The notes: generated by a model from the letters alone, not told the origin. Shown: positions 11,866-42,188, counted from the first letter of the stretch. The stretch: 64,000 bases of DNA from Promethearchaeota archaeon (GCA_048940925.1 JBHLOC010000016.1:1-64000); one strand, 5' to 3'. Numbers and translations: made by a program.

Positions 11866-12846
11866 ATGGTTAAAAATGTGGAGTTTAAAATGAAAAGTTC
11901 TGAAGAACTCAAAAAAATACTCTTCTGTGGTTTAGAAAATGGTGGAAAAACTTCAATTCTATTAACTTTGGACAGAAAATTTAGTTTATTACCTACTGTT
12001 AAACCTACAATAAAAGCTAAAAGGACTTTTTATACTAATTCATTACTCGGGATCTCTATTGTCAGGTGGGATTTAGGAGGCCAAAAAGGTTATAGGAAAA
12101 TTTATTTAGACAATAAAAGTAAATATTTTACAGATATGCAATCAATTTTTTACGTAATAGATATTCAAACTTCCGAACAATTTAGAGATGATCTAGTTTA
12201 TCTTACTGATATTGTAAATATAATGTCTGCTTCTCATCCAGATAATTTTCAGTTCTTAATTTTACTCCATAAATGTGATCCTGATATAAAAAAAACTAAA
12301 GCTGTTATAAATAAAATAAATTACCTAAAACATAAAATTCCATCAATAATTAATGATTTAAAATTCAATATATATACCACTTCTATTTATGATGAACCAA
12401 GTTTATTAAAAGCATTTTCTGATGGTGTTTTTTATGCTACTCATAAATCTGAGATGTTTCAAACATTATTAAAAGAATATATGGGTAAAACTTATAGTAG
12501 CGCGACACTCTTATTAGATCAGAATTGTTTTATAATCGCCAGCAGATCCACAAATGAAAACTATCAACGAATTTGCGAGTCAATTGCCCCAAGATTAACA
12601 CAGGCATTAGAAAAATTAGAAGAATGGGATATAAATACTATAGATATTGTTACCAATATTGAATTTCCAGAGAAGCATTCTGAATTCCAAAAAGAAGGTG
12701 TTATCTTTCTAAGAAAAATGGATATTAGCGAAACGAGGTTTTATCTGGTTGCACTCTGTTTAAATAAAAATGTAAAAATCAAATCCTACGAATATTTACC
12801 TTTATTAGCTACTAATTTACAAAATTTATTAGAGAGCTTTGAATGA
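11866..12846 (+). CDS. Rag/Gtr-like small GTPase with C-terminal roadblock/longin-like domain
   Basis: G1 GLENGGKTS, G2 PT, G3 WDLGGQ, G4 HKCD, G5 TSIYD..LLKAFS; C-terminal LLLDQNCFIIAS. Confidence 0.8.
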   Translation: MVKNVEFKMKSSEELKKILFCGLENGGKTSILLTLDRKFSLLPTVKPTIKAKRTFYTNSLLGISIVRWDLGGQKGYRKIYLDNKSKYFTDMQSIFYVIDIQTSEQFRDDLVYLTDIVNIMSASHPDNFQFLILLHKCDPDIKKTKAVINKINYLKHKIPSIINDLKFNIYTTSIYDEPSLLKAFSDGVFYATHKSEMFQTLLKEYMGKTYSSATLLLDQNCFIIASRSTNENYQRICESIAPRLTQALEKLEEWDINTIDIVTNIEFPEKHSEFQKEGVIFLRKMDISETRFYLVALCLNKNVKIKSYEYLPLLATNLQNLLESFE

Positions 12847-12995
12847 TTCTTTCTCACTAAATAATATTATGTTATAGAATTTTGAAATCATTCTTTTTTT
12901 AGTAAGATTAAAATTTATTTTTATTTCCAATGACCTCTCTGGGTGGGGTTTAAATACTTCCATTCAAAAAGAATTTTAAAACAATTAAAAATATA

Positions 12996-14156
12996 ATGAC
13001 CATTAATTTAAAATCTGAACATATCTATATAGGCCCAAAAGCTTTATTTGATCCATATTATGTTCCTCCACTTTTATTACATAGAAAAAAAGAACAAGAA
13101 TTATTGTATTCACTCTTAATGGATTCTATTTCAGATGAGTTTTGTGTTAATATACTTTATCAAGGAATAGACGGAGTTGGGAAGAAAGCAGTTGTAAATA
13201 AAGTAGTTAATGATATTTTACTTCAAAATGAAGAGTATATGAAGATTTGTAAAATATGTATCGATTGTAAAGAAAAAAATTTTGAGGAAATGATTTTTTC
13301 ACTGATATCTGATTTACTCTTCTTTTCAAATAGAGAATTTAGCATTGATTCAATTTTAAATTCAAATCGCTCACATATCTGGAATATATTTAAATTATTG
13401 TGTCAAAAAAGTAATTATCGCTTTATTTTTATATTTAACAATGTAGAGTATCTAAAATCTGAACTTTGCAAAAAATTTCTCCATTTTGGAAAAGAAGAAA
13501 ATATTTCTATAATATCAACTGTAAATAAAATGTTAAGGCCAAATACTATTGATATTTTAAAGGAATTCGATTTCAAAAATAAACTAAATTTCTTTACTTA
13601 TAATGAACTTTACTCTATTCTAAAACAAAGAGTTATGTTGACTTTCTCACATCATTTAGATGATGACCTAATTAAATATATTACTGATTTGGTTTGTGAG
13701 CAATATGTACCTGTTCCCGGGAAGGGAATTGAAATTCTTCGAGATCTTTATCCGATATTAAAAGGTAAGAAGAATTATAAAACTTTTGAAGTAATGGAGA
13801 ATTGTCAGAGTCATTTTGATCAATCCCACATATTCGACGAATTCAATATGTTGAATTATATTTCTGAAGAAGATTTGTTAAATATCATTTTTTTAGATAA
13901 CCTTTCAAATTTTTTTACCAATACAATGGATTATTATATATCTGTGGACCAATTACAAGAATTATTTAATATTTCTTGTGAATCTTTGGATTATAAAAAG
14001 GATTTAACTGAATTTCGAACTATAACTAAAGGATTATTAAATATTGGAATTTTAAAACTCTCAAAGCAAGATCCTTATTCAAAAAATGATTTTTATTATA
14101 TGCTGATAAGCCCTCATCAATTAAAAGCTATAATTGATACTGTTTTTAACAACTAA
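12996..14156 (+). CDS. Cdc6/Orc1-like AAA+ protein with degenerate Walker motifs
   Basis: FDPYYVPPLLLHRKKE N-terminus, GIDGVGKKA, FIFNNVE, FTYNELYSILKQR, C-terminal winged-helix-like region. Confidence 0.72.
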   Translation: MTINLKSEHIYIGPKALFDPYYVPPLLLHRKKEQELLYSLLMDSISDEFCVNILYQGIDGVGKKAVVNKVVNDILLQNEEYMKICKICIDCKEKNFEEMIFSLISDLLFFSNREFSIDSILNSNRSHIWNIFKLLCQKSNYRFIFIFNNVEYLKSELCKKFLHFGKEENISIISTVNKMLRPNTIDILKEFDFKNKLNFFTYNELYSILKQRVMLTFSHHLDDDLIKYITDLVCEQYVPVPGKGIEILRDLYPILKGKKNYKTFEVMENCQSHFDQSHIFDEFNMLNYISEEDLLNIIFLDNLSNFFTNTMDYYISVDQLQELFNISCESLDYKKDLTEFRTITKGLLNIGILKLSKQDPYSKNDFYYMLISPHQLKAIIDTVFNN

Positions 14157-14327: not shown

Positions 14328-17300
14328 TTGACTTATATTAAGAAAATTTCCATGACGGGATTCAAATCATTTGGAGACCGTACTGTAACAATCAAACTTT
14401 CAAGTGGTTTTACCTGTATTGTAGGTCCAAATGGAGCAGGAAAATCTAATATTATAGACGCACTGTGTTTTGCTTTAGGTAGATTGAGTAAAAAAACAAT
14501 GAGAGCAAAAAGTTTAGAAGACCTAATATTTGCAGGTTCAAGAGGAAAAAACCCTTCTCAGAGAGCAACGGTAACAATGTATTTTGATAATTCAGAGAAT
14601 GTTTTCCCCGGAGGTACAGAATCTTTTGAAATCACTCGTACTATAAAAAGAGGAGGTGGTGGCGGTTATAAGATGAATGGAAAAAAAACTACTCGGCAAC
14701 AGATTCTCAATGCTTTAGCTGCTGCAAATGTTGATCCCGATGGTAGTAATCAATTCGTTTTACAGGGAAAAATTGTAGAATTGACACACATGAATGCAGA
14801 AGAACGAAGACAATTTATTGAAGAACTCATTGGACTTCAAAAATATGATGAAATGAAAGATGTTACGTTAAAAGAATTGGAAAAAGCAGAAAGAGATTTA
14901 GGACAATTCGAAGCAATTTTTAAAGAAGTATCTTCTCAACTCAAAAAAGTTGAAAAAGAAAAGAATGATGCGTTAGCATGGAAAGAACTGGATGATCACG
15001 TGAACTTTTTGAATTCACAGTTAATAGCTTTAAAAATTTCAAAATTAAGAGAAGAAGAAGATGAATTAGAAAAAAAAATAGAAAATTCTCTAAAAATTAT
15101 CGAAGAATTGGAAGAAAAAATTGTTAGACAAGAAGATTTGCTAAAACAAGAATCACTTGTGATGGATAATATTCAACTTACAATAAATGAAAAAGAAAAG
15201 GAGAGAGAGGAAATAACTGAGAATATAACTCAATTAAAGACTAAAATTTCTTCAAATCAAACTACATTAAATCTAGCTAATAAATCAATTGAAAAATTGA
15301 CACAAGAAATAAAAAATTTAGAAAATTTACAAATGGAGCTTGAAGAAGGACAATCTATTGATTCCTTAATAGAACAAGCTACAAATGAGATTTCTGAATG
15401 TGAAAATTTTATTGAAGGATCTAAAAAGGAAATAGAAAAAAGACAGCAGATACAAGCTGAACTAGAGACAAAAATAAAGACAAAAGAAGAAGAAAAATCA
15501 CAATTTCAATCTGAAATCTCAAGTATTAAACAAAATATATCATCTAGTAAAGCACAAACAAAAGTTTTGAGAGAAAATATTAAAAAGAATGAAGATAAGA
15601 AAGTTAAATTAGAAAATGAATTGAATAAATTAAAAAGGGATGCAGAAAGTATAGATGATGCAATAGAAGATGCAAGAAAGGCAGAAAAGGAAATTCGAAA
15701 ACAAATTGATAATTTAAAAGTTAAAGCCTCTGAAGAAAATCAAAATAGAAAAGATTTGGAAAATAAAATAAATTCACTTCAACAAGAAAAAAATAATTTG
15801 AACAATAATCTTGGAAATATAAGGTCATCTTTATCGTCTTTAAATACTGAGATTAATATGAATAACAATAGAATTCAAGATTTAAATAAGAAAAAAATTT
15901 CAATCGAGAAGAAAATCCAGGAATTAAGCAAGGGTAAAGATACTGAACAAGTTGTTAAAGAACTGTTAAAAGAAAATGAAGATGTTAATAAAGTATTAAT
16001 AGGATTAAGAGCAAAATTAAAGGAAGAAAACTCAATTTACAAAAAAAATGAGCAGAATCTAGAACTTTTGAAAATGAAAAAATATTCTCTTGAGTCTGAA
16101 ATTAATGATAATAAAGGAAAAATTGACAATATTAATACTGAACTAAAAATATACTCAAAAGAATTGACTAAATTGGAAAGAGAAAAGAATAATTTAGACT
16201 TACATGTGAATGAACTAAAAAATAATCTTTCAAATACTGAAAAAGATATAGAAAAATTCAGTTTAAGAAAAGAAAACATCCAAAGACGTTTGGAAGAACT
16301 TAAGAAAGAAAGGGAGACCCTCTTAAAAAAAATTGAATCTTCAGAAGAAGAATATGAGAAGAATACGGAAGATATAACTGGAATCTTACAAATTTTAAAT
16401 ATGCTTACTCAAAATATCAATATATCAGTTGAATCTATAAAAAGTAATATACAACAGGCAAATGCTGAAGCAATAGAATTATCTGCTGAAGATTTCAAAA
16501 AATTTGTATTAGATATTGTAGATATAATGAAAACAATCGAAACACTAGGTAGTGATACAGAACAAACTGCCGAGATGTCAGAAATGCTCAGCTCGATATT
16601 AGAAACACTAAGTTTATTTACAGAAAATGCTGATTCTACAATTAATCAACTCATTGAAAGGGTAAAAGAATCTGCTGATGTAGAAGTTCAAACATCAACT
16701 ACTACTTTTGATAGTTTTGTGCAAGATCTAATGGAAATTCTTGAAAATGTATATTTATCTTTAAGAAAGTTAACTATGTCCAAGAGTCAAGAACTATATA
16801 AACAACTAGAAGATATTTCTGAAAATATTAGTGCTCAATCTGATGATTTTAATGATGTTGAGAAAAAATTTACAGGAAAAAATGTACAAAATCAACATAG
16901 TACAGAGAAGCTTTCAATTTCTATTCGTAGACTCGAAGAAATTACTAAAAGAATTCAAGAATTAAATACAAGAAGTTTGAAATCAGAAGAAGAAAACAAA
17001 GATAGAAACACGATTATAAACGAAAGAAAAAAAGAAATTGAAAGTTTAGATATTGAAATTGAAAAGTTAATAGAGCTTAAAGATAAATATTGGGATAATA
17101 TATCTCAAATCCAAGATGATATCGAGAAAAAACAAACAGAATTAGAGACTTTAAGAATAAAGTTACAAGAATTACATGGAATTCAGAACTTATTCGAAAA
17201 TATTACTGAAATTGATGAAAATATACAAAAATTAAATAGTGCAATAGATGATAAAAAGAATTTGATTATTAATACTGAAAATAGTATTAATAAAATTCAA

Positions 17301-18782
17301 GAAGAGCAAAATTCTATTCAAAATGAAATTGATACTTATACTATACAAAAAGAAAAATTTTGGGAGATAACAGAAAAAATCCAGAAGCAAATTGAAGATA
17401 AAAATAAGGAATTAGAAGAAACTATGGATCGTCTTAGGGCACTGGAAAATGTAATGAGAATTATCAATTCAATTGAGGATATTAAAAAGGAAAATATTGA
17501 TGCCAATAATAGTATTGAACAGTGTTTGAAAGATGTTGAAGTTTTCAACTCTCAAGTTGATGAAATTCAAAAAAATGTTGATCAAAGACAAGAAATAATA
17601 GATTCTCTTAGAAATGAAAAAAGTAAAGAATTGGAATTACAAAAAAAAGCCCAAAAGCAATTGAACAAGCTGAATAAAGATTTACAGAAACACCAAGGAA
17701 AATTAAATGAATTAAATAAAAATAAAGAAAGAGAACAGAAAATTATAGAATTAGGTGTAGAGATACAAGACACTGAAAAACAAGTAGAATCCACTTTAAA
17801 CGAATTAGAGAATTTTAAAGAAGAATTAAATAATGAAAATGAGAAAAAGGACAATAAGCAAAATGAAATTGATAATTATGTCCAAGAAAAAGATCAATCA
17901 TGGAAAAAACAAAAACAATTCCAAAAAATAATTACAGATTTGAAATCAGATCTGTCGATGGAAAATTCAAAAAAAAATAACTTTGAATCTAAGAAAATTA
18001 TATGCGCAGATCAAATAGAGACTTTGTTTCAACGATCCAAGGAATTTGGCTCATTACCAAGGGTAACCGAAGATTTATCAGAACCAGGGTTACAATCTGA
18101 AATAGTGGAAGCAACAAAGAAGAAGAAAGCTCTCGAACCTGTGAATTTAAAGGCAATTGAACAGTACGATGCAGTTAAAGAAAGATTTGATGAAATTGAC
18201 ATGCGTAGACAGACAATACAGAGAGAAAGAAAATCGATTTTAGATGCAATAGATAAAATAGAACTTGAAAAAACAAGAACATTTATGAAAGCATATCATG
18301 AGATTAACCGAGAATTTAGTATGATTTTTCAAAAACTCAGCCCTGGTGGTTCGGCCAAAATGATTTTAGATCGTCCTGATAAACCTTTTGAGGGTGGAAT
18401 TAGTATTGAAGCTAGACCTCGAGGTAAAAAAATATCTAGCCTTGAAATTCTAAGTGGAGGCGAAAAAACACTCGTAGCACTCTCGTTTATCTTTGCTGTT
18501 CAGGAATTTTATCCAGCACCATTTTATGTTATGGATGAGATTGATGCAGCCCTTGATGGTCCTAATGTGCATAGAGTAAGCACAGTAATTCAAGAATTTT
18601 CAAAACAAGCACAATTCCTTGTAATAAGTCATAGGGAAGAAAATATTGTGAATGCAGACCGCATATATGGAGTTTCAATGCAGCAAAGTGGAATTACTGA
18701 TATTTTTAGCGTAGATTTAGAGGAGGAGGCTAAACGACTCTTAGAGCTTGAAGATATTGAGCCTACAATTACAGAAAATTAA
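14328..18782 (+). CDS. smc: chromosome segregation protein SMC, elongated, without a recognisable canonical hinge
   Basis: GFKSF, Walker A GPNGAGKSN, Q-loop VLQG, PVNLKAIEQY, signature LSGGEK, Walker B MDEIDAALD, ISHR; long coiled coils; TTG start after GGAG. Confidence 0.95.
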   Translation: MTYIKKISMTGFKSFGDRTVTIKLSSGFTCIVGPNGAGKSNIIDALCFALGRLSKKTMRAKSLEDLIFAGSRGKNPSQRATVTMYFDNSENVFPGGTESFEITRTIKRGGGGGYKMNGKKTTRQQILNALAAANVDPDGSNQFVLQGKIVELTHMNAEERRQFIEELIGLQKYDEMKDVTLKELEKAERDLGQFEAIFKEVSSQLKKVEKEKNDALAWKELDDHVNFLNSQLIALKISKLREEEDELEKKIENSLKIIEELEEKIVRQEDLLKQESLVMDNIQLTINEKEKEREEITENITQLKTKISSNQTTLNLANKSIEKLTQEIKNLENLQMELEEGQSIDSLIEQATNEISECENFIEGSKKEIEKRQQIQAELETKIKTKEEEKSQFQSEISSIKQNISSSKAQTKVLRENIKKNEDKKVKLENELNKLKRDAESIDDAIEDARKAEKEIRKQIDNLKVKASEENQNRKDLENKINSLQQEKNNLNNNLGNIRSSLSSLNTEINMNNNRIQDLNKKKISIEKKIQELSKGKDTEQVVKELLKENEDVNKVLIGLRAKLKEENSIYKKNEQNLELLKMKKYSLESEINDNKGKIDNINTELKIYSKELTKLEREKNNLDLHVNELKNNLSNTEKDIEKFSLRKENIQRRLEELKKERETLLKKIESSEEEYEKNTEDITGILQILNMLTQNINISVESIKSNIQQANAEAIELSAEDFKKFVLDIVDIMKTIETLGSDTEQTAEMSEMLSSILETLSLFTENADSTINQLIERVKESADVEVQTSTTTFDSFVQDLMEILENVYLSLRKLTMSKSQELYKQLEDISENISAQSDDFNDVEKKFTGKNVQNQHSTEKLSISIRRLEEITKRIQELNTRSLKSEEENKDRNTIINERKKEIESLDIEIEKLIELKDKYWDNISQIQDDIEKKQTELETLRIKLQELHGIQNLFENITEIDENIQKLNSAIDDKKNLIINTENSINKIQEEQNSIQNEIDTYTIQKEKFWEITEKIQKQIEDKNKELEETMDRLRALENVMRIINSIEDIKKENIDANNSIEQCLKDVEVFNSQVDEIQKNVDQRQEIIDSLRNEKSKELELQKKAQKQLNKLNKDLQKHQGKLNELNKNKEREQKIIELGVEIQDTEKQVESTLNELENFKEELNNENEKKDNKQNEIDNYVQEKDQSWKKQKQFQKIITDLKSDLSMENSKKNNFESKKIICADQIETLFQRSKEFGSLPRVTEDLSEPGLQSEIVEATKKKKALEPVNLKAIEQYDAVKERFDEIDMRRQTIQRERKSILDAIDKIELEKTRTFMKAYHEINREFSMIFQKLSPGGSAKMILDRPDKPFEGGISIEARPRGKKISSLEILSGGEKTLVALSFIFAVQEFYPAPFYVMDEIDAALDGPNVHRVSTVIQEFSKQAQFLVISHREENIVNADRIYGVSMQQSGITDIFSVDLEEEAKRLLELEDIEPTITEN

Positions 18783-18806
18783 ATATTGTTGAAATGGTGA
18801 TTAATA

Positions 18807-19805
18807 ATATCAGAAGACCAAAAGCCAGAAAAAAAGTATAATTTTAGCCAGTGGATAGTAAAAGATTTAAGAGAATTTGCCTCCAAGAATAATATAAAAA
18901 TTCCATCAAAATCTAAAAAGAAAGATATCATAGAATTGTTAGAAAAAATTGTATCACATCCAGAATTTGTTGATCGATCTGAAGAACCAGAAGAATTGGA
19001 GGAAGAGCTAATAGCAGATTTTGATGACGAGGATGATCTTGCTTTATTAAGGAAAGAAAAAATGGATCTAAAATTTTGGCAGCAACCCCCATTTTCCAGT
19101 TTATTGGATACAGAATTAGCTAAAGAATCAGATATAGCTTTTTATGATTTAGCTAGTCTAGTTGATGAATTTTTCGATAATATGCTTCACGAAGATTTAA
19201 TTAACTATAAGATCTCCGGAATTGCATTAAAGACTTCAGCATCATTACATCATTATAAAATTACTAGTATAATAAAAGAAGAAGAACAAATTCAAAAAAA
19301 AGAAGAATTAGAACGATATCGACAAAGACATAGCAGATCAATACCAAAAGCTCTACCCCAACCAATACAACCTAAAATGCAAATTGCTACAAAGGAGGAA
19401 TTGTTTGATGCTATGAGATCTGCTATAATAGAAGTAATGCAAAGTAAAGAAAAATTAAAAAGAAGGAGGATGCGAAAAGAAGAATTAAAACAACAAAGAA
19501 TACAATTGAGATCAAAAGCTCAATTACCAAAAGAACTTTTAAAACACATTAGTGGAAAAGATCAGACAATTGAAGAGTTACATGAATCATGGTATAACAG
19601 GATAAAAGCTACAATTAATTTAGATGATAAAGAAACGAGTTTTTTTGATTTGACAAAAATTATTAAAGATGAAGAAGAAACTAGCATAGGTAGGAAATTT
19701 ATTTTAGTAAGGATGTTTTTAGCTTTAATGTTTTTATCCACAGGAGGTAAATTGAATTTATCTCAAGATGAAGATTTTAAGAATATATCTATAGATTTAA
19801 AATAA
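18807..19805 (+). CDS. scpA: kleisin ScpA with N-terminal HeH/SAP-like module; probable ATA start upstream of the track's TTG
   Basis: N-kleisin DLASLVDEFF...INYKISGIALKTSASL and C-terminal FLALMFL..GKLNLSQDEDFKNI; lies between smc and scpB. Frame is open from 18801, with GGTGA at 18796-18800. Confidence 0.85.
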   Translation: MSEDQKPEKKYNFSQWIVKDLREFASKNNIKIPSKSKKKDIIELLEKIVSHPEFVDRSEEPEELEEELIADFDDEDDLALLRKEKMDLKFWQQPPFSSLLDTELAKESDIAFYDLASLVDEFFDNMLHEDLINYKISGIALKTSASLHHYKITSIIKEEEQIQKKEELERYRQRHSRSIPKALPQPIQPKMQIATKEELFDAMRSAIIEVMQSKEKLKRRRMRKEELKQQRIQLRSKAQLPKELLKHISGKDQTIEELHESWYNRIKATINLDDKETSFFDLTKIIKDEEETSIGRKFILVRMFLALMFLSTGGKLNLSQDEDFKNISIDLK

Positions 19806-19831: not shown

Positions 19832-20737
19832 ATGAATAATTTAAACAAAAATTTAAAGGAAAATCCAGAGGAAGAACCTCTCGAAAATATTGAAGAAATC
19901 TCTGAAGTAGTTTCAAATGAAGGGAATGAAGCAGAAGAAATTAAAGAGAGTGATCAACAGGTTAAAGAAGTTTCTATTGATGAAGTCAGTAAAGATGAAT
20001 TCGGTATCGATGAGAAAGGAGATACTATAGAAGAAAAATATGGGGATATTGAAGATGAGTATATAGAACGTGAAAATTTAGAAAATCTTGATGAGAGTGT
20101 TGAACTTAAACCTTTAGAGAGTGAACCGCTAGAAGAAGTATCATTAGAAGTACAACTCAGAGAATTTCATAGGAACTTAATTGAAGCTTCATTATATGCT
20201 GCAGGCAGGCCTCTGAGCATCGAAGAAATTTCGAATAAGTTAGAAATATCTAAAAAAGAAGTAGAAGAATTAATTAATTTGGTTGCTTTTGATTATATGG
20301 AACGATCGACAGCATTAGTTATAGCTCAAATTGGGGATAGATACCAAATGCAGATTAAACCAGAATATACAGAAAAAGTTTCTAAATTTGCTAAAGGAGG
20401 AGCTATTGCAGAGCGATATTTAAGAACCTTGACTATTATAGCTTTAAAACAACCAATTTTAAAATCAACCGTGGTAAAATTAAGAGGATCTGGAGCATAT
20501 GAACATGTAAAATATCTAATTGATAATGGATTTATAGATGCTGTCAAAAAAGGAAGAACTCATGAGTTAACTACAACAGATAAATATTCTGATATGTTCG
20601 GATTGCCGAAAGATAAAATTGAATTGAAACGTGTTATGATTAAACAATTAGGGGTAGAAGAAGTTACAAGTAGCGAACAACCAGAAGAAATTGAAGATGA
20701 ACAGAACATAGATCAAGAAAAATTAGACAAAGAATAA
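19832..20737 (+). CDS. scpB: kite subunit ScpB with long acidic N-terminal tail
   Basis: IEASLYAAGRPLS, LRTLTIIALKQPI, LRGSGAYEHVKYL, TTDKYSDMFGL. Confidence 0.92.
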   Translation: MNNLNKNLKENPEEEPLENIEEISEVVSNEGNEAEEIKESDQQVKEVSIDEVSKDEFGIDEKGDTIEEKYGDIEDEYIERENLENLDESVELKPLESEPLEEVSLEVQLREFHRNLIEASLYAAGRPLSIEEISNKLEISKKEVEELINLVAFDYMERSTALVIAQIGDRYQMQIKPEYTEKVSKFAKGGAIAERYLRTLTIIALKQPILKSTVVKLRGSGAYEHVKYLIDNGFIDAVKKGRTHELTTTDKYSDMFGLPKDKIELKRVMIKQLGVEEVTSSEQPEEIEDEQNIDQEKLDKE

Positions 20738-20754: not shown

Positions 20755-23355
20755 TTATTTGAAAAAATAAATTTTTATATCAAGATCTTCGATATTCTGC
20801 TTCAAATCTGATTCAACTTCAATAGATTTCTCTTCAGACTTATCAATAACTTCTATATTTGATATTCTATTTGTATTCATTATATCTTCTCTTGAGTCTA
20901 TAATTTTATCCATTTGATTTTTATCAGTTATAAAGATCACTCTCTCAATCTCTTGATTTAAGGGTATTTGAAGCTGTGATTTGAGCATTCTCAGATGTTT
21001 TATTAATTCAATAGCAAATTTACCTTTTTTAGAAAATTCCTCAGAAATGTTTTCATAGTTCATAGGCCACTTCTCTAAATGAATTGATTTCAGATTTCTA
21101 AATTTTTTATAAATGACATGATATATTTCCTCAGAAATAAAAGGCATAATTATCGCTAAAATGTTCAATATTTTGTAAAATAAATTTAGAGCATGTTTCA
21201 ATGAGGTTTTTCTAATGTTTGGATCTTCTATATAAAACTTATACTTTATTGCTTCGATGTATTGATCGCAAATATCATTCCAGAAAAAAGAACGTAAAAG
21301 CATTGTGGCTTCGTGCCAATTGTATGCGTCAAAATATTTAGTAATCAGCTCTAAGTTATTGTTAAATTCTGAATAGAAGAAACAATCAATTGGAGATAAA
21401 TCTTTAGGATTTATATTTAGGTCATTAATATCGACTTTATTTAAACTTAAAAATAAAAATCTATACGCGTTCCATATTTTAGTAATAAATCTTGAAGCAC
21501 CAACCAATTGTTCATACCTTATCCCATACTTTTTATTAAATTTATCTTCTGTAAGCTTGTTCTTTTCCTTTAAGATCTTTTCAATGGAGATTGGCTGATT
21601 AGATTGAAGATTAATCCAAGAAAATTCGAATGGATAATCATCACCAAGTGAACCCATTGCTGCCCAATACCTAAGAGTATCTGCTCCAAAATCAGGCATA
21701 ACTTCATCTGGTGATACAGAATTACCAAGACTTTTAGACATATGCCGACCATCTGGACCAGCGACCATCCCATTTATCATTGCTTCATAAAATGGAGATT
21801 TTCCAGTTAATTTTTTACATCGAAATAATGTATAAAATAACCAAGTTCGGATAATTTCATAGCCTTGAGGTCGATGAACTTTAGCATTCAAATAAATTTT
21901 TTCAAAAAAGGCATCATCTTCTTCCCATTTTGCTATTACTAAAGGAGTTATGCTTGAATCAATCCAACAATCACATATATCTTTTTCTCCTACAATCTTA
22001 TTACTCTTACATTTAGGGCATTCCTCAACAGGTGGAGAAACTTTAACTGGATCTAATGGTAAATCCCCTTTATCTGGAGGTATTACATAATCACAATCTT
22101 TACAATACCAAAAGGGTATAGGAGTTCCGAAAACTCGTTGTCGGGAAATAACCCAATTCCAATCCAGACCTTCAGCCCAATCGAGTAATCTTTGTTTTTG
22201 TTTTTCTGGATACCATCTCATATTTTTTGCTGAATCAATAATCTCCTGAGTAAAATCTTTTACATTAATAAACCACTGATAAACTGGCAAATATTCAATG
22301 GGCTTGCGACAAGATGATCGTTCAGTATGGACAATAATACTATGTTCATAATCTTCTATTTTCTCAATTAGCCCCATCTTATCAAGATCTTTGACAATTT
22401 GCTCTCTAGCTTCCATTATCGTTAATCCTTGATATTTAGAGTTCTTATTCATATGACCATCTTCAGTAAATATTTGGATCTCATCTAAATTATATTCGAT
22501 TTTCCATTTAATATCCATCTCATCTCCATATGTGCAAACATAGACAACACCAGTGCCAAAATTCATATCAACTGTGCTATCCATATAAACTCGAACAGTA
22601 CGGTTCGTAAAAGGAATTTCTATTTCAGCAGCAGATAGGTCATAATAACGATCATCATTTGGATTTACCATTACTGCAACACATGCTTCCATATATTCTG
22701 GACGTGTTGTAGCTATAGACACAAATTCATTGTCTCTACCTACGATTGGTAATTTTAAATACCATAATTTTCCTTTCTCTTCCTGATATCCCACTTCTGC
22801 TTTAGCAACAGAAGTCTCGCAGTTAACACAAAAATGAGTTGGAAATTTTTCACGATATAACCATCCTTTTTCATAGAAATAAAGAAGTGATAATTGAACT
22901 TTATATTTATAATCATCATTCATAGTACGATACGTAAAATTCCAATCAGAAGAATATCCTAACTCATCAAATTGCCTTCTCATATTTTTAATATTGGCAT
23001 CTACCCATTCAACACATTTTTCTAAGAAATCATCTCGTTGATGTTGAGAGATTCCATATTCTCTTTGTACGGCTAATTCCACAGGAAGACCATGACAATC
23101 AAAACCTTGGGGGAAATAAACATTATCACCTTTCATTTTATGATATCTTGCTACGAAATCAATCCATGAATGATTTAAAATATGCCCCATATGGAGATCT
23201 CCACTTACGAAAGGAGGTGGTGTATCAATGGTAAATACTTCATCCTTACAGTCTTCATCAAATGCATATATCTTATTTTCTTTCCAAAATTTCATCCATT
23301 TTTTTTGAACTTCTTTAAAGTTAAACCGTTTTGGATAAATTGTTTCTTGTGCCAT
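20755..23355 (-). CDS. valS: valine-tRNA ligase, archaeal type
   Basis: DTPPPFVSGDLHMGH, GFDCHGLP, ATTRPE, WVISRQRVFGTPIP, RPQGYEIIRTW, HMSKSLGN; no C-terminal coiled coil. Confidence 0.93.
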   Translation of the reverse strand: MAQETIYPKRFNFKEVQKKWMKFWKENKIYAFDEDCKDEVFTIDTPPPFVSGDLHMGHILNHSWIDFVARYHKMKGDNVYFPQGFDCHGLPVELAVQREYGISQHQRDDFLEKCVEWVDANIKNMRRQFDELGYSSDWNFTYRTMNDDYKYKVQLSLLYFYEKGWLYREKFPTHFCVNCETSVAKAEVGYQEEKGKLWYLKLPIVGRDNEFVSIATTRPEYMEACVAVMVNPNDDRYYDLSAAEIEIPFTNRTVRVYMDSTVDMNFGTGVVYVCTYGDEMDIKWKIEYNLDEIQIFTEDGHMNKNSKYQGLTIMEAREQIVKDLDKMGLIEKIEDYEHSIIVHTERSSCRKPIEYLPVYQWFINVKDFTQEIIDSAKNMRWYPEKQKQRLLDWAEGLDWNWVISRQRVFGTPIPFWYCKDCDYVIPPDKGDLPLDPVKVSPPVEECPKCKSNKIVGEKDICDCWIDSSITPLVIAKWEEDDAFFEKIYLNAKVHRPQGYEIIRTWLFYTLFRCKKLTGKSPFYEAMINGMVAGPDGRHMSKSLGNSVSPDEVMPDFGADTLRYWAAMGSLGDDYPFEFSWINLQSNQPISIEKILKEKNKLTEDKFNKKYGIRYEQLVGASRFITKIWNAYRFLFLSLNKVDINDLNINPKDLSPIDCFFYSEFNNNLELITKYFDAYNWHEATMLLRSFFWNDICDQYIEAIKYKFYIEDPNIRKTSLKHALNLFYKILNILAIIMPFISEEIYHVIYKKFRNLKSIHLEKWPMNYENISEEFSKKGKFAIELIKHLRMLKSQLQIPLNQEIERVIFITDKNQMDKIIDSREDIMNTNRISNIEVIDKSEEKSIEVESDLKQNIEDLDIKIYFFK

Positions 23356-23537
23356 TTTAGACTCTAGCTAGAAGAATAATAAATATAAAAATACATAATA
23401 TTTGATAACTTTATAAGATTTATTTAAATCTAATCTAAAAACTTCAAGAAATTAATTACAGGTTAAAAAATGAATAAGTAAAAGAGAACTCAAATCTTAA
23501 ATTTTTAATAGCTTTTTCATTTCTGATCTACTTTCCT

Positions 23538-26285
23538 TCAGCGTAGAATTTCAAGTTGTTCTTCGAGCATTTCCATTCTTTTTTTTAATTGTTCTCGGTT
23601 TTCTCGCTCCCTTTGAACTATTTCTGGATTAGCTCGTATTGCAAAAGGTCCATTCAATTTTATTTCGCTCTTTTGTATTTGTTCAGCAATAGATTCAATT
23701 TGTTTTGAAATACGTACAATTTCCATTTTTATGTCAATTATTTCTTCTAATGGAAGATATATTGCTATCCCTTGAAGAACGAATCGAGCAGAATGTCTTG
23801 GTACATTGGTTACATCAATTTTAAATTTATTTTTATCTATACGAGATAAAGTGATTATTTCTGAAGTGACACTCTCAATTAATCCCCTTTTTTCTCCAGT
23901 TTGTATAATCAATGGTATTTTCAAACCAGATTCTATATTGAACTCCCTTCTTGTTCGTCGAATTTCATGAATTATTGAAGTGATTAAATCAAAATCCTTC
24001 TCGAGTGTGTTCTCTATTAATGATTCATCTGGTTCTGGCCATTTTGCTACAATTAAGGCAGGACCATCTTTTACCTCTTCTGGTAATGCCTGCCATAAAG
24101 TCTCTGTCAGAAAAGGTATGATAGGATGGAGAAGACGTAGTGATGTTTCTAAAACATACAGCAAAATTGATATTGGTATAATTTTATCTCGCTCTTTTTC
24201 ATCATAAATCCGGATTTTAGAAATTTCAATATACCAATCACAAAATTGATCCCAATAAAACGACCTTATCGAACGAGCAGCGTTTAAATAATCATATTCT
24301 TTATAAAAGTTATTAACTTGTTTTATCATTTTATTTAATCGAGAAACAATCCATCGGTCTCCAATATGAAGCTTTTCCATTAGATTTAAAGCTGAAAACC
24401 TTTCGATCTTTTCTGTTTTATCAAGGGTGCTAAGAATATAGTTTACAGATTGCCAGATCTTATTACAAAAATTTTTTGAGGCTCTAAGAAGCCCCTCTCC
24501 AAGATTTAAGTCTTTACCAGGCACCGTGTTTGCAATAAATGTAAATCGTAATGAGTCTGCCCCATATTTTTCAATAATCTTTAATGGATCATATTCTTCA
24601 ATGTTTTCCATTGATTTACTTATCTTCTTACCTTCTTCATTGCGAATCATTCCATGAAAATAACATAATCGATAAGGAGATTGTTTAGTTAATTCTAATC
24701 CTAACATCATTTCTCGAGCGACCCAGAAAAATAGAATATCATATCCTGTTTCACGTATGTCATTGGGATAAAATCTTTTTAAATCTTCACTCTCCATATT
24801 TGGCCAACCTAAAGTTGCGAATGGCCATAACCCGGAAGAAAACCAAGTATCTAAAATATCCTCATCTTGCTTCAGATTTTTATCATTACAAATAGGACAG
24901 TGAGCAGGTTCTTCCATTTCACAGATTTCATGCCCATTTGAGCAATACCATACTGGAATTTGATGTCCCCACCATAATTGACGACTGATACACCAATCTC
25001 TTATATTCTCCATCCATTGATAAAATCGTAATTCTTCTCTTTCTGGTATCATCATAGTTATTCCACTTCTGACGGCATCAATGGCTTCTCTAGCAAGATT
25101 TTTCGTTCTAACAAACCATTGAGTTGAAATTCTTGGTTCAATAACAGTGTTACATCGTTGACAATGAGCGACAGTATGAGTATAAGGTTCAATTTTATCT
25201 AATAAGCCTTCTTTTTTCAAATCCCTGACTATTTCTTCTCGACATTTAAATCGATCTATATTTGCATATTTTCCAGAATATTTTGGAACCATCTTTCCAG
25301 TTTCATCTATGACGGTTATAGCCTCTAAATCATACTTAATTCCAATTTCATAATCATTTGGATCATGTGCGGGAGTAATTTTTAGAGCTCCTGTTCCAAA
25401 TTCAGGATCGACATATTTATCTTCAAAAACAGGGATTTCACGTCCAAGAACTGGTAATAAAGCGGTTTTTCCCTTATATTTAGAGTATTGTGGATGGTTT
25501 ATAGCAATAGCAATTGCGGTGTCACCTAATAATGTTTCGGGACGAGTTGTTGCTAGTATTATAAAATCTGTGGCACCTTCCGCCCATTTACCGGATGCCC
25601 ATTCCGCTTTTGGTCCTTTCCATTTATCTGTTAAAATAGGATATTTCAAATACCATAAGTTACTCATGTGTTCTTCATTTTCGGCTTCTAAATTTGAGAT
25701 CGCAGAGGTGCACCTTCCAGGACACCAATTTACCATATATGTTCCTCTATATATTAAACCTTTATCATAAAGGTGTTTAAATGCTGTTAACACAGCTTTA
25801 TGATATTTCTCATCCAAAGTAAATCTATTGCGAGTCCAATCGCATGAAGCACCCATTCTTCTAGATTGGTCTAATATTATATCCTGATGTTTATTAGTCC
25901 AATCCCATGCTATTTCAATAAATTTTTTTCGTCCAATATCTTTTCTATTAATCCCTTTTTTTGCTAATTCTCTTTCCACAACATTATGGGTAGCTATACT
26001 GGCATGGTCAGTCCCCGGAAGAAATAGAGTTTCTTTTTGGTTCATACGTTCATAACGAGTCATAAGATCTTCAAGTGTAATGACAATCGCATGTCCTAGA
26101 TGAAGAACACCAGTTACATTCGGAGGTGGAAATGTTATACAAAAACGGGGTCCTTTCTCTTTTACTAATCCTAATTCTCGTTGTTTTTCAGGGCGAAAAT
26201 ATCCTTCTGATTCCCACCATTCATAGATACTTTTTTCAATTTTCTGTGGATCATGTACTTTTGATAAATTGTTGAAATCTAACAT
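23538..26285 (-). CDS. valS: valine-tRNA ligase, bacterial type
   Basis: PPPNVTGVLHLGHA, GTDHASIAT, WCISRQLWWGH, LDTWFSS, TGYDILFFWV, KISKS, C-terminal coiled-coil tRNA-binding arm. Confidence 0.92.
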   Translation of the reverse strand: MLDFNNLSKVHDPQKIEKSIYEWWESEGYFRPEKQRELGLVKEKGPRFCITFPPPNVTGVLHLGHAIVITLEDLMTRYERMNQKETLFLPGTDHASIATHNVVERELAKKGINRKDIGRKKFIEIAWDWTNKHQDIILDQSRRMGASCDWTRNRFTLDEKYHKAVLTAFKHLYDKGLIYRGTYMVNWCPGRCTSAISNLEAENEEHMSNLWYLKYPILTDKWKGPKAEWASGKWAEGATDFIILATTRPETLLGDTAIAIAINHPQYSKYKGKTALLPVLGREIPVFEDKYVDPEFGTGALKITPAHDPNDYEIGIKYDLEAITVIDETGKMVPKYSGKYANIDRFKCREEIVRDLKKEGLLDKIEPYTHTVAHCQRCNTVIEPRISTQWFVRTKNLAREAIDAVRSGITMMIPEREELRFYQWMENIRDWCISRQLWWGHQIPVWYCSNGHEICEMEEPAHCPICNDKNLKQDEDILDTWFSSGLWPFATLGWPNMESEDLKRFYPNDIRETGYDILFFWVAREMMLGLELTKQSPYRLCYFHGMIRNEEGKKISKSMENIEEYDPLKIIEKYGADSLRFTFIANTVPGKDLNLGEGLLRASKNFCNKIWQSVNYILSTLDKTEKIERFSALNLMEKLHIGDRWIVSRLNKMIKQVNNFYKEYDYLNAARSIRSFYWDQFCDWYIEISKIRIYDEKERDKIIPISILLYVLETSLRLLHPIIPFLTETLWQALPEEVKDGPALIVAKWPEPDESLIENTLEKDFDLITSIIHEIRRTRREFNIESGLKIPLIIQTGEKRGLIESVTSEIITLSRIDKNKFKIDVTNVPRHSARFVLQGIAIYLPLEEIIDIKMEIVRISKQIESIAEQIQKSEIKLNGPFAIRANPEIVQRERENREQLKKRMEMLEEQLEILR

Positions 26286-38813: not shown

Positions 38814-41800
38814 GTGTCTAAAATTTCATCTAAAGAAGAAGGCAAGATAAAACAAGGTACCATCGCAGAATATATGCGAAAAAGAACACAGCTTGTAGGT
38901 TTTGAGTTTGGATATTGGAAACATGTTCAATATTGTGCAGAATTTATAGATAACGCGCTTGATGCTATTGAAAGTTTTCAATGGAAGGAATTAAAAAGAA
39001 CTGATTCAAAAGTAAAATTCTCCTTAGATCAAGAATTATTTTTAGAGAAATTCTCTATAGTAGAAGAAGCAAAAGAAGAAAAAAAATCTCAACACCTAGA
39101 TGAGGAAGCAAAACATACCTTAATGCAAGAATTTGGTATTGAAACTACTGAAGTGCAACGGTCTACAGTCCAAGAATTAGAAGTAGAAGAAGAAGAATCT
39201 GGAGAAATTACAGATAAAGAAGAATTGGAAGTAGAAGAGGAGGTAAAAAGAATTATTGACGATATGCAGGAACTTATTAAACCTGTTGAATATATTATTG
39301 ATGTTGAACCAATTTGTATAGTTCGTATAAGAGAATTTGAAGCGCCCTCGTTTTTAACATCTGAAATAAGTCAAAAAAATGTTATGAGTTTTACTTTCGA
39401 AATTTTTGATAATGGAACTGGAATGTCAAAGATAGATTTAAGAAAATTTGGAAGATACTTAGCTTCATCAAAATCTATAGAACTTAAACAAACACGCGGA
39501 AGTCAAGGATTTGGTGCTCCTAGTGCATTTAGTGACGCTCAAAACACTACTGGCAGGCCTATTATCACTGTTTCAAAGACTGTTGATAATGTTTATGCAA
39601 CAGTAACCGAATTTTTCACAACTTCCAAAAATGAGAAAAAGTATTTAATTCACCCCTCAGAGATAGACAGTCCATTTCTTCATGGAACATACATCAAGTT
39701 AAATTATCTTAATGTAAAATACGTCAGGGGTTATGTTGAAAAATATATTGAAGAAACCGCATTTATGAACCCTCATATAACTATTATTTATATTGATCCG
39801 GAAGGAAAGGAAAAGATTTATCGAAGATTAGCTTCTTCTTTTCCCAAAGAACCCAAATACGCCAAACCACATCCTTCGTCTGTTAACATTGGAGATTTGC
39901 AGGATTTAATAACGAAGTCAGATAACAAAAATATTACCGCTTTCTTAAAAGAAAATTTTGTTAGAATTAGTTCTAGAACAGCCAAAGAAATTGTAGAATT
40001 AGCAGAAAAATTTCTTCAAGATAAATTAAACCTCTTGATTCTTGAAAAGGGTTTTGTAACTAAAGTTCAAAAAAAAATTGATAAAATATATTTCCTAAAA
40101 TTTGAAAAACGAGTATTTGGACGATCAAATAAACCAAGAGATAAATTAATTATATATGAAATTGAATCTTTAGATTTGAAAGAAGATTTTTGGAAATTTA
40201 TGGATGAATATAATAAAATTGATAAGAAACAGGAAAAGATTAATAAAGAGATAAGAAAACATAATAATCGAATTGAAAAATCTGAAACCCAAAGAGAAAT
40301 CAAAAACATTGAAAAAGAAGTAAAAAAGTTAATGAAAAATATAGATAATATTAAAAAAGAAAAAGAAAAATTAAAACTTCAAGTGAGTAATCTTTTTGAA
40401 ACTAAAAAAGATGGTTTAATTGAATTAAAAAAAATTAAAAATCGAAGTGATTTCGAAGATTTAGTTAATGAAGTTCAAATTTCTAAAGTCAAACCAATTG
40501 ATTTAACCAAAGAACAATTTAATTCTCTTTTTCTTGCTTTTAAATCTATAAAATACCTAGCACCACCTACAGACACAGCTATTCCTGTAGGTGATTCTAT
40601 CTTAGAGAACACACTAATTAAGGAAATTGGACTAAAAATCTCAGAAAATCTGGATGATTTTGATTTACCACTAGATAACATAAAACAAACAACTGAAATC
40701 TTATTAAAAGAAAAACACAAACTATTAAAAAATGAAGATCCTAAGATAAGGGAGAACATGATAAATAATATATCTATTGATTCTGATGAAATCATTAATA
40801 TAAGCTCTGAAATATTAGGAAGTATCGAAATTGTAGAGGGAAAAGAAGATGATGAACAATACACACAATATATTGATGATATTCTTACTTTTTCTGAATT
40901 AGAACCTATTGAAAGTTATACGAATTTATTTGAATATTTTATTGAGAATTATACTAGAGATGATGATTTTGTCGCTGCTGAAACAAGAGCTCCGACAAGT
41001 GGAAAAGGTTTAGCTTATGTTGTTGAAGCTGTATTGGCTTATTCTAGAAATATTGAAATACCAAAACGTTCTAGAGATGTTTTATCAAGATTTGTAAACA
41101 GAACTCCTAAACTTAGAGATAGCGCAGATTGTGCTATAACTAAAGCAGTTCAATCAGTAAATTGGAAAAATTATAATTTAGATACATATGATAATGGACT
41201 CCCAAAGGGACCAATTAAATTATTGGTTAATGTTTCTGGTCCTTTTGTTCATTTAATGTTTAAATCTCAATCAAAAAACGCTTTAGCTGATGACGAAGAT
41301 TTAATTAAAGAAATTAAATATTGTCTTGAAGCAATTGGGAGAAGATTACGTGTCTATCTTAATAGAAAAGCGAGTCTTCGTAAAACTGAGAAAAGAGCTA
41401 GTTTAATTGACAAATATATACCTATTTTCGTTGAAAGCATTTATAATATTGCAACACAGGGTAATAGCATATATAAAGCGAAGATTAATGTAAAAGAATT
41501 AGAAGATTTAATGAGAGGGGCAATTGGTAAAAAACCTGCACCTAAAGCTTTAAAAGAGCCAGAATTACCTTCTAAAACCGAAACCATAGAGAAAGAACTA
41601 AAAAAAGAAGAAATCAAGCCAGAAGAACCTAAAGAAACTGAAGTAATTAGTGCAGTAAAACCAATAAAAGAAAAAATACATATTGAAAAACCCCAAATTT
41701 CCAAGAAAACTCTGTTGAATTGGAATGTAAAAGAACTTAGAGATTATTGTAATGAAAGCAATATTTATGTTCCATCTAAAGCTAGAAAGGCTGAAATCAT

Positions 41801-42188
41801 AGAAAAAATATTAAAATCATTTGCTGAAGAAAGAGTAATAGAAAAACCAGAAATAATACCTGTAGAAAAACAAATAGTCTCCAAGAAGATTGCTGTAATG
41901 AAACCCTCAAAAAAACCTGCAATTGCTCAAGAAATAATAAAGCCAAAACCTAAACCAAAACTAGCCAAAACACAACCAACTCAAACAACATTACCAGTCA
42001 TAACAACTGATAAAATACTAGAAGCATTATCAGATGAGTGGCAAACCATTAAACATCTTATATTTAAATTAAAAATTAAGGATATGATGGATGCTAGATA
42101 TCTTCAACTCAAACTCAAAGAATTAGAACGTAAAGGAGAAGTTTTAGTAGAAATTAAGATGGGTAGAAAGCATTGGAAATTAAAATAG
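38814..42188 (+). CDS. top6B: DNA topoisomerase VI subunit B, greatly enlarged (1124 aa)
   Basis: GHKL EFIDNALDA, DNGTGM, TRGSQGFG, HGT; KPHP; RFVNRTP; FKSQSK; adjacent to top6A. Confidence 0.92.
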   Translation: MSKISSKEEGKIKQGTIAEYMRKRTQLVGFEFGYWKHVQYCAEFIDNALDAIESFQWKELKRTDSKVKFSLDQELFLEKFSIVEEAKEEKKSQHLDEEAKHTLMQEFGIETTEVQRSTVQELEVEEEESGEITDKEELEVEEEVKRIIDDMQELIKPVEYIIDVEPICIVRIREFEAPSFLTSEISQKNVMSFTFEIFDNGTGMSKIDLRKFGRYLASSKSIELKQTRGSQGFGAPSAFSDAQNTTGRPIITVSKTVDNVYATVTEFFTTSKNEKKYLIHPSEIDSPFLHGTYIKLNYLNVKYVRGYVEKYIEETAFMNPHITIIYIDPEGKEKIYRRLASSFPKEPKYAKPHPSSVNIGDLQDLITKSDNKNITAFLKENFVRISSRTAKEIVELAEKFLQDKLNLLILEKGFVTKVQKKIDKIYFLKFEKRVFGRSNKPRDKLIIYEIESLDLKEDFWKFMDEYNKIDKKQEKINKEIRKHNNRIEKSETQREIKNIEKEVKKLMKNIDNIKKEKEKLKLQVSNLFETKKDGLIELKKIKNRSDFEDLVNEVQISKVKPIDLTKEQFNSLFLAFKSIKYLAPPTDTAIPVGDSILENTLIKEIGLKISENLDDFDLPLDNIKQTTEILLKEKHKLLKNEDPKIRENMINNISIDSDEIINISSEILGSIEIVEGKEDDEQYTQYIDDILTFSELEPIESYTNLFEYFIENYTRDDDFVAAETRAPTSGKGLAYVVEAVLAYSRNIEIPKRSRDVLSRFVNRTPKLRDSADCAITKAVQSVNWKNYNLDTYDNGLPKGPIKLLVNVSGPFVHLMFKSQSKNALADDEDLIKEIKYCLEAIGRRLRVYLNRKASLRKTEKRASLIDKYIPIFVESIYNIATQGNSIYKAKINVKELEDLMRGAIGKKPAPKALKEPELPSKTETIEKELKKEEIKPEEPKETEVISAVKPIKEKIHIEKPQISKKTLLNWNVKELRDYCNESNIYVPSKARKAEIIEKILKSFAEERVIEKPEIIPVEKQIVSKKIAVMKPSKKPAIAQEIIKPKPKPKLAKTQPTQTTLPVITTDKILEALSDEWQTIKHLIFKLKIKDMMDARYLQLKLKELERKGEVLVEIKMGRKHWKLK

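Follow-up and report, generated by a model that had tools for sequence, protein, structure and literature searches.

SMC proteins are defined in reviews by their hinge (PMC10586767), and it is a long-standing question whether this domain serves as a DNA entry gate, as a DNA-binding site or as a mere clasp. In Bacillus subtilis, an Smc carrying the zinc hook of Rad50 in place of the hinge supports normal growth (PMC5344682, Burmann 2017), a laboratory swap which suggested that the hinge fold is dispensable in this organism. The arm length of B. subtilis Smc is constrained, with a period of 91 aa, and natural arms fall into modes of 341, 423 and 515 aa (PMC5344682). A clade of SMC proteins from marine Actinomycetes has no hinge, and no replacement module has been reported for it (PMC12153180, Sussfeld 2025). 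Rad50/SbcC and LmuB of Lamassu, which use a zinc hook, and RecN are SMC-superfamily ATPases that also dimerise without a hinge; they lack kleisin and KITE genes (PMC10586767).

The Smc characterized here is encoded in a window of 64,000 nucleotides, the whole stretch of DNA that was analysed, from a Promethearchaeota archaeon of the Lokiarchaeia (GCA_048940925.1, JBHLOC010000016.1:1-64000). With the Smc-ScpAB complexes of B. subtilis and Pyrococcus, and the archaeal SMC of PMC8665677, it shares ABC heads, a place in the canonical head clade, adjacent scpA and scpB genes and a long antiparallel arm. It differs from them in three respects: the alpha/beta hinge is missing and an acidic helical module of 130 aa stands in its place; the arms exceed theirs by ~95 or 190 aa on each strand, according to the family and the choice of arm end, and consist partly of tandem repeats; and ScpA has an extra N-terminal extension that is HeH-like, Lys-rich or Zn-finger-like. 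Like the engineered Smc(Zh), it is an Smc-ScpAB with a probable, unrelated dimerisation device and shows an arm-length periodicity of ~91 aa; however, the Lokiarchaeia swap is natural and order-wide, and a putative metal-free helical zipper replaces the hook. The actinomycete proteins likewise have SMC-clade heads and neither hinge nor CxxC, but they represent a bacterial lineage described as simply lacking the hinge, are probably unrelated, and were not identified among the 41 proteins matched by a profile of the Lokiarchaeia module. In contrast to Rad50/SbcC, LmuB and RecN, the Lokiarchaeia Smc has no CxxC, does not come near the family cut-offs of Rad50 or RecN, is accompanied in its operon by both a kleisin and a KITE gene and, at 1484 aa, is much longer than RecN (~560 aa).

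The two precedents, the zinc-hook Smc (PMC5344682) and the actinomycete clade (PMC12153180), lower the surprise of a hinge-less Smc. What is added here is a two-module paralogue that serves as a model of dimer geometry, and a genome without a hinged paralogue or its ScpA and ScpB copies. A search of the literature outside subscription papers, accessions included, retrieved no description of the Lokiarchaeia hinge-less Smc or of its module, and the family is absent from the main text of two SMC phylogeny papers (PMC8665677; bioRxiv 10.1101/2024.01.07.573240).

A condensin-type Smc and its operon

The features discussed below, all on the + strand, are the following.

14328..18782, +, smc, 1484 aa, condensin-type heads without a hinge (Pfam, NCBIfam scores, head trees)
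14328..14852, +, N-terminal half of the Smc head with Walker A, R-loop and Q-loop (intact in 20/20 hinge-less homologues checked)
15195..16070, +, N-strand of the arm, three tandem units of 97/98 aa (aa ~290-581; HHalign between units 96-98%)
16374..16538, +, apex helix, repeat 1 (aa 683-737), with a wide hydrophobic face and small residues mid-helix
16548..16565, +, GSDTEQ loop (aa 741-746), sole site of internal indels in the module and hairpin tip in the preferred model
16587..16772, +, apex helix, repeat 2 (aa 754-815; repeat alignment, conservation)
17025..17852, +, C-strand of the arm, three tandem units of 90 aa (aa ~900-1175; HHalign between units 94-99%)
18195..18737, +, C-terminal half of the Smc head with signature, Walker B, D-loop and H-loop (motif check)
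18801..19805, +, scpA kleisin; the open frame starts at 18801, and an HeH/SAP-like motif is encoded upstream of the TTG at 18936
19832..20737, +, scpB (KITE) with an acidic N-terminal extension (PF04079 E 1e-33; TIGR00281 over its cut-off)

The preliminary description of this locus assigned the head motifs and the neighbouring genes to the Smc-ScpAB type, and both assignments are borne out. All ATPase motifs from Walker A to the H-loop are intact in each of the 20 homologues checked, and scpA and scpB adjoin smc. Over its full length the protein matches SMC_N and P-loop families in Pfam; it exceeds the cut-off of TIGR02168 (593 bits against 567) and falls below that of TIGR02169 (621 against 729). 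No Rad50/SbcC family scores above 109 bits, where the cut-offs are 450-1090, and RecN gives 22 bits against 408. With respect to MukBEF, MksBEF and Wadjet, there is no MukB-hinge match in Pfam and the JetC scores are weak, of the kind given by a coiled coil or a P-loop. PADLOC found no match among the partner genes, and no Mre11/SbcD-like gene was seen beside smc, which is flanked by scpA and scpB and by the gene of an AAA protein. A classification as Rad50, RecN, MukB/JetC or SMC5/6-like protein was rejected on family scores, partners and head tree. A role in a defence system was also rejected: the gene is present in a single copy per genome, is found order-wide, is largely congruent with family labels and has no PADLOC partner. 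The Lokiarchaeia Smc descends from Smc-ScpAB but lacks the hinge by which such proteins are defined, and is thus a variant rather than a plain member.

The two genes that follow smc encode 289 aa (as scpA was called) and 301 aa (scpB). ScpB is recognized by both Pfam and NCBIfam. A mixed ScpA profile that includes canonical Asgard ScpAs matches solved ScpA chains (E 3e-23) and also Scc1 chains; homologues from hinge-less operons have a PF02616 match of their own, which is weak. By this profile the gene 3' of smc is an ScpA-type kleisin and the putative partner of Smc. Its true start probably lies upstream of the called TTG. ScpA relatives carry HeH, Lys-rich or zinc-finger-like N-termini, tags of a kind present on other Lokiarchaeia proteins, which could add DNA binding.

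Upstream of smc (11866-14156) are found a Rag/Arf-like GTPase and a Cdc6-like AAA protein, the gene for the latter being syntenic in many genomes of family f1. Downstream (20755-26285), two class I aminoacyl-tRNA synthetase genes that resemble each other stand in tandem; their motifs are ValRS-like, and in relatives they often adjoin scpB.

The region in place of the hinge

Positions 16374-16751 correspond to aa 683-808 of the frame 14328-18782. It had been proposed that this part of an Asgard Smc-ScpAB carries a duplicated all-helical domain instead of a hinge, with neither hinge motifs nor a CXXC zinc hook. A motif scan of the entire 1484-aa protein found none of GxxGxV, GX6GX3GG, AIExALG, GRxTF and CxxC. 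As had been anticipated for PF06470, Pfam gives no SMC_hinge match, and no MukB-hinge match either, whether the whole protein is searched at E<=0.1 or aa 650-850 at E<=1. PF06470 is absent from all 120 homologues listed of the 169 found, and the module contains 0-1 Cys across 31 homologues. The AlphaFold model of the module has no beta strand, and no hinge stands among the listed fold matches, as against the canonical hinge fold that had been named as contrary evidence. In the ESM Atlas, the features near 0.9 on the apex are all unnamed clusters, and neither SMC_hinge (0.76) nor zinc-hook (0.77) exceeds chance. Together, Pfam, the repeat at family level and the helical model support the proposed replacement.

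As this metagenome assembly contains 8% contamination, one might suspect an assembly artefact, a chimera, a pseudogene or a hinge diverged past detection. These explanations are already refuted and retain a negligible probability: there are 169 homologues, with PF06470 in none of the 120 listed, and the same gene is present in three single-contig genomes. As to an undetected hinge, the apex model contains no strand, and a PF06470 search of this genome picks up only one other gene, a diverged SMC5/6-like gene whose hinge is still detected.

The repeat was described as ungapped, with a 71-aa period and 11/55 identities between aa 683-737 and aa 754-808. This alignment is confirmed and is clear across the family, although the unit is somewhat longer, ~58 aa (aa 680-740 and 751-812) rather than 55. 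In the single sequence the diagonal ranks seventh, below the coiled-coil background, and 11/55 identities alone prove little. At family level, with 31 diverse homologues, profiles of the two halves align by HHalign at 98.45% (E 4e-15, 58 columns). Offset 71 has a repeat profile score of 68, whereas no other offset between 55 and 89 exceeds 7; the score of 68 was reached by 0/20,000 shuffles in which the hydrophobic class was kept. The GSDTEQ turn was correctly placed at the protein midpoint: it spans aa 741-746 and the midpoint is 742.

The module is better conserved than the flanking arm. Its helices have a hydrophobic fraction of 0.38, about twice that of the arm (0.18-0.25), on an arc of ~160 degrees as in four-helix bundles. 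The net charge ranges from -9 to -19, with a mean of -15, whereas most sampled hinges are roughly neutral; DNA binding by the module is therefore unlikely. A PDB sequence search with the apex profile returned nothing below E 0.02. A Pfam Apolipoprotein match on the apex (24 bits against a cut-off of 90) was dismissed as a generic amphipathic match.

Predicted fold and proposed pairing of the apex module

AlphaFold predicts one Smc module as four helices (residues 2-60, 64-92, 98-132 and 136-200) that form a closed bundle with a pLDDT of 76. In shape it resembles the bundles of catenin, vinculin and the FAT type, with a Z of 15.6 and an rmsd of 1.6 over 119 residues. This match is tied with de novo designs and is read as that of a generic four-helix bundle rather than as homology with catenin or vinculin; the Foldseek search that had been recommended for the predicted apex, carried out on the one-module model, recovered only generic four-helix bundles.

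According to this model, each module would fold on itself into an up-down-up-down bundle that caps the arm and docks, by its surface residues, onto a second such bundle or onto a partner protein. N-cap-like residues conserved at aa 712 and 784 agree with the closed form, as does the generic shape match; aa 712 is always N, S, G or T, which also suits a helix N-cap. However, single-chain predictions often close hairpins that are swapped or oligomeric. In 31 diverse rows the two 3-residue turns of the model lack Pro and indels altogether and contain hardly any Gly; the hydrophobic phase is kept through both with a period of 3.65-3.67, near 11/3, an argument with one free parameter that is only suggestive. 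The confidence of one-module models (pLDDT 60-76) is below that of the two-module model considered next (83-88 in five models), and the strong acidity disfavours simple surface self-docking. Overall, closed bundles that dock by surface appear rather unlikely.

A different picture is provided by DSAG12_01461 of P. syntrophicum, a non-SMC protein that contains the module twice, the copies matching the Smc apex in HHalign at 99.8% and 98.1%. The model of this protein, with a pLDDT of 88.5 (83-88 over five models), consists of four ~122-aa helices which run continuously across the suspect turns and places the two hairpin tips at equal distances from the linker. Alignments with small four-helix bundles extend over residues of both modules, as in that of 4uos, which covers 188/188 residues at an rmsd of 3.2 within the model range 50-414, and the two hairpins are thus modelled as a parallel zipper, side by side with tips together in one four-helix bundle. 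The protein is a stand-in for Smc: its linker forces parallel geometry, and its modules are only ~21% identical to each other or to Smc. DSAG12_01461 and its relatives (L042-L048) are unannotated proteins of 900-1300 aa with two apex modules, a probable beta-rich region and a Lys-rich tail. In another protein (L049:1036-3723, genome G220), one and a half apex modules resembling those of f1 Smc lie between a small-GTPase-like N-terminus and a C-terminal zinc ribbon, an architecture that indicates reuse of the module.

The reading preferred here extends this geometry to Smc. Each Smc would fold back at the GSDTEQ loop, so that the module prolongs the intramolecular antiparallel arm as a 130-aa helical hairpin, made of a duplicated amphipathic helix of ~58 aa with a 71-aa period, in the place of the alpha/beta hinge. 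Two such hairpins would lie side by side, tips together, much as in a chemoreceptor dimer, and form a four-helix bundle with a length of ~9 nm. The resulting zipper would close the top of the Smc-Smc-ScpA ring and keep the arms in rod register, while heads, ScpA and ScpB would act as in Smc-ScpAB, in ATP-driven DNA capture, loop extrusion and chromosome organisation. The apex itself would be a static acidic clamp, for which DNA binding or gate opening is unlikely. The chemoreceptor cytoplasmic domain is alike in the proposed arrangement of two hairpins in one four-helix bundle; this is an analogy only, there being no sequence relationship, and its Foldseek matches are weak and non-specific (E ~0.04).

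The steps of this proposal differ in strength. Gene anatomy, lack of hinge and hook, the repeat and its conservation, one origin, partner genes, arm repeats and acidity are observed directly in the sequences. The all-helical fold of the apex and the parallel pairing in the paralogue are predicted by modelling; that the Smc dimer copies this pairing, that a ring forms and that loops are extruded we infer by analogy. Parallel pairing is favoured because the tips-together arrangement of the paralogue is what two rod arms would present, and the closed bundle obtained with the Smc module alone, instead of an extended hairpin, is a point against it. The identification of the module as the dimerisation apex is well supported by its exact hinge position, its conservation and the modelled paralogue. 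Dimerisation through the apex in some form can be held with considerable confidence, and the full scheme of fold-back hairpins, parallel zipper and otherwise ordinary Smc-ScpAB action with a probability somewhat better than even.

Were the hairpins extended but antiparallel, those of two Smcs would overlap in a domain-swapped fashion and give a linear 180-degree dimer or head-to-tail chains, whose long segmented arms would bend back or bridge two DNA sites. The RecN structure has an antiparallel overlap of the domain-swapped type in its coiled-coil tip dimer. Such a pairing shares the continuous-helix signature with the parallel zipper; each helix is big/small complementary around its own middle, and arms ~1.5x the normal length, made of repeated units with short breaks, would accommodate it. 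We regard it as unlikely: the natural two-module paralogue is modelled as a parallel pair, no covariation appears on the diagonals specific to this arrangement, although the signal is weak, and the steps in arm length point to a rod. Mean-field covariation of the apex, in a shallow set of 208 sequences (~60 effective), stays at noise level, with a slight rise of the H2-H3 band (mean z 0.3) over flat values elsewhere; given the pseudo-symmetry of the module, closed, parallel and antiparallel pairings are similarly complementary.

The arm steps emerge from a comparison of families. A weaker fourth unit continues the N-strand to aa ~678 (HHalign 79-94%). The Smc of family f4 is without exactly one unit per strand, 97 aa on the N-strand and 90 aa on the C-strand. 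Counted from one fixed landmark of the head to the other, most families have ~1104 residues, f4 has 913 and hinged Smcs have ~817. A rough estimate with an assumed hinge size gives arms of ~500 aa in most families and ~400 aa in f4, within ~20 aa of the 515 and 423 modes. As the step of ~94 aa per strand matches the functional period of 91 aa (PMC5344682), and the estimates sit near natural modes, it is suggested that the arms remain constrained as in a rod-forming Smc dimer, which argues against antiparallel overlap and fits the parallel zipper.

Distribution, origin and companion SMC genes

Across the four families of this Lokiarchaeia order the module occurs in 113/134, 1/1, 14/14 and 2/4 genomes, and it is essentially absent from ~245 other Asgard genomes. 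Two strong exceptions (G039 and G063) probably reflect mis-binning, the genes being near-identical, of the Loki type and located on short contigs; a match in G292 (L050) and matches to 487-aa cysteinyl-tRNA-synthetase-like proteins were attributed to chance. The apex profile gave no match in seven genomes from other orders of the class, and among 1.84 billion representatives only 41 proteins were retrieved, those identified being Lokiarchaeia or weak unrelated repeats. The named homologues belong to Promethearchaeota/Lokiarchaeia and include Ca. Harpocratesius repetitus (MCF2138850.1) and two cultured species, P. syntrophicum (WP_147661926.1) and L. ossiferum (UYP46603.1), which makes the family amenable to experimental tests. 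Wherever it forms part of an Smc, the ATPase motifs are intact, and the gene order is mostly smc-scpA-scpB. Other Asgard Smcs are ~1190 aa long and mostly have canonical hinge motifs.

In head-only trees, which comprise Asgard sequences only and in one case use SMC5/6-like rows as outgroup, the hinge-less Smcs form one clade (100/100). Its sister group (98/94) is made up of hinged Smcs, which come from the other orders of this class and from one additional family. Hinge-less Smcs fall within the canonical clade and SMC5/6-like genes outside it. Since the hinge-less heads form a single clade, sister to hinged Smcs, the hinge was, by these trees, replaced once, early in this order. The hinge-less Smc is a derived side branch and not the eukaryotic ancestor, since eukaryotic SMCs retain the hinge.

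Two further SMC genes deserve mention. In G129, from another order of the class, a 1262-aa SMC (L077:1730-5515) has canonical-type heads, no hinge match and a zinc-hook-like CxxC near its middle (aa ~624-627); no scpA or scpB adjoins it, it lies outside the hinge-less clade in the head tree, and it may be a second, independent hinge replacement. G279 carries a degenerate C-terminal SMC head fragment (L096:4767-5657) in which signature and Walker B are not intact, and the hinge-less Smc was not found in the same genome.

P. syntrophicum and L. ossiferum each have three SMC genes: the hinge-less one in its smc-scpA-scpB operon, a hinged canonical one with a second, linked scpB and a second, unlinked scpA, and an SMC5/6-like one. 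In the order as a whole the hinged canonical Smc is usually followed by a diverged scpB only, with the second scpA elsewhere (L092, L093, L100-L106). It occurs in only 26/154 genomes of the order, and in none of the 53 genomes of this genus or the 42 of the other largest genus. Neither this paralogue nor its ScpA and ScpB copies were found in the present genome, in which the hinge-less Smc is the only condensin-type Smc and only one ScpA-type and one ScpB-type gene were found; near-complete relatives show the same gene set. The hinge-less Smc therefore represents a paralogue lineage, and the second, hinged Smc that some relatives keep has been lost from this genome. The check for a second SMC with a normal hinge, advised in the preliminary description, did yield one hinge-bearing SMC, but this is the diverged SMC5/6-like gene and not a condensin-type Smc. 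This gene (L095:5646-10297, genome G000, contig C7), called SMC5/6-like by its divergence in a tree without eukaryotic SMC5/6, is followed by two small genes, candidates for its kleisin and KITE, for which no family match was obtained. The SMC5/6-type role thus appears to be held by a separate, hinged gene.

This gene inventory bears on whether the apex joins the two Smcs at all. The ring might be open on top, or held by heads and kleisin, with the module as a stiff cap or docking site in a complex that tethers or clamps DNA without loop extrusion. The module is also present in non-SMC proteins, and in the cultured species the coexisting hinged Smc could do the canonical job. Against this stand the absence of the hinged paralogue from the two largest genera, the failure to find in this genome the paralogue's ScpA and ScpB copies or the two-module protein, a partner candidate that family f3 carries, and the wide conserved hydrophobic face, which needs burial. 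An open-top ring is decidedly unlikely.

With the hinge-less Smc, the SMC complexes of Asgard archaea, usually counted as two, become three, which bears on the ancestry of condensin and cohesin. The family also constitutes a natural test of the need for a hinge, in which the domain was replaced once, the gene was kept order-wide and the hinged paralogue was later lost in the two largest genera. If the parallel zipper is true, the only condensin-type motor of most species in this family would extrude loops with neither a hinge gate nor a hinge DNA-binding surface, a direct limit on models of DNA entry and segment capture. The chances are about even that kleisin-type SMC rings possess, after hinge and zinc hook, a third natural dimerisation device in the form of an acidic, probably non-opening four-helix zipper.

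Elsewhere in the window, a 1115-aa HEAT-repeat protein (45291-48638) has Cnd1 and SCD matches that look like generic HEAT. The Topoisomerase VI B subunit (38814-42188) is unusually long, at 1124 aa, and has a weak HeH/Rho_N-like motif near its C-terminus.
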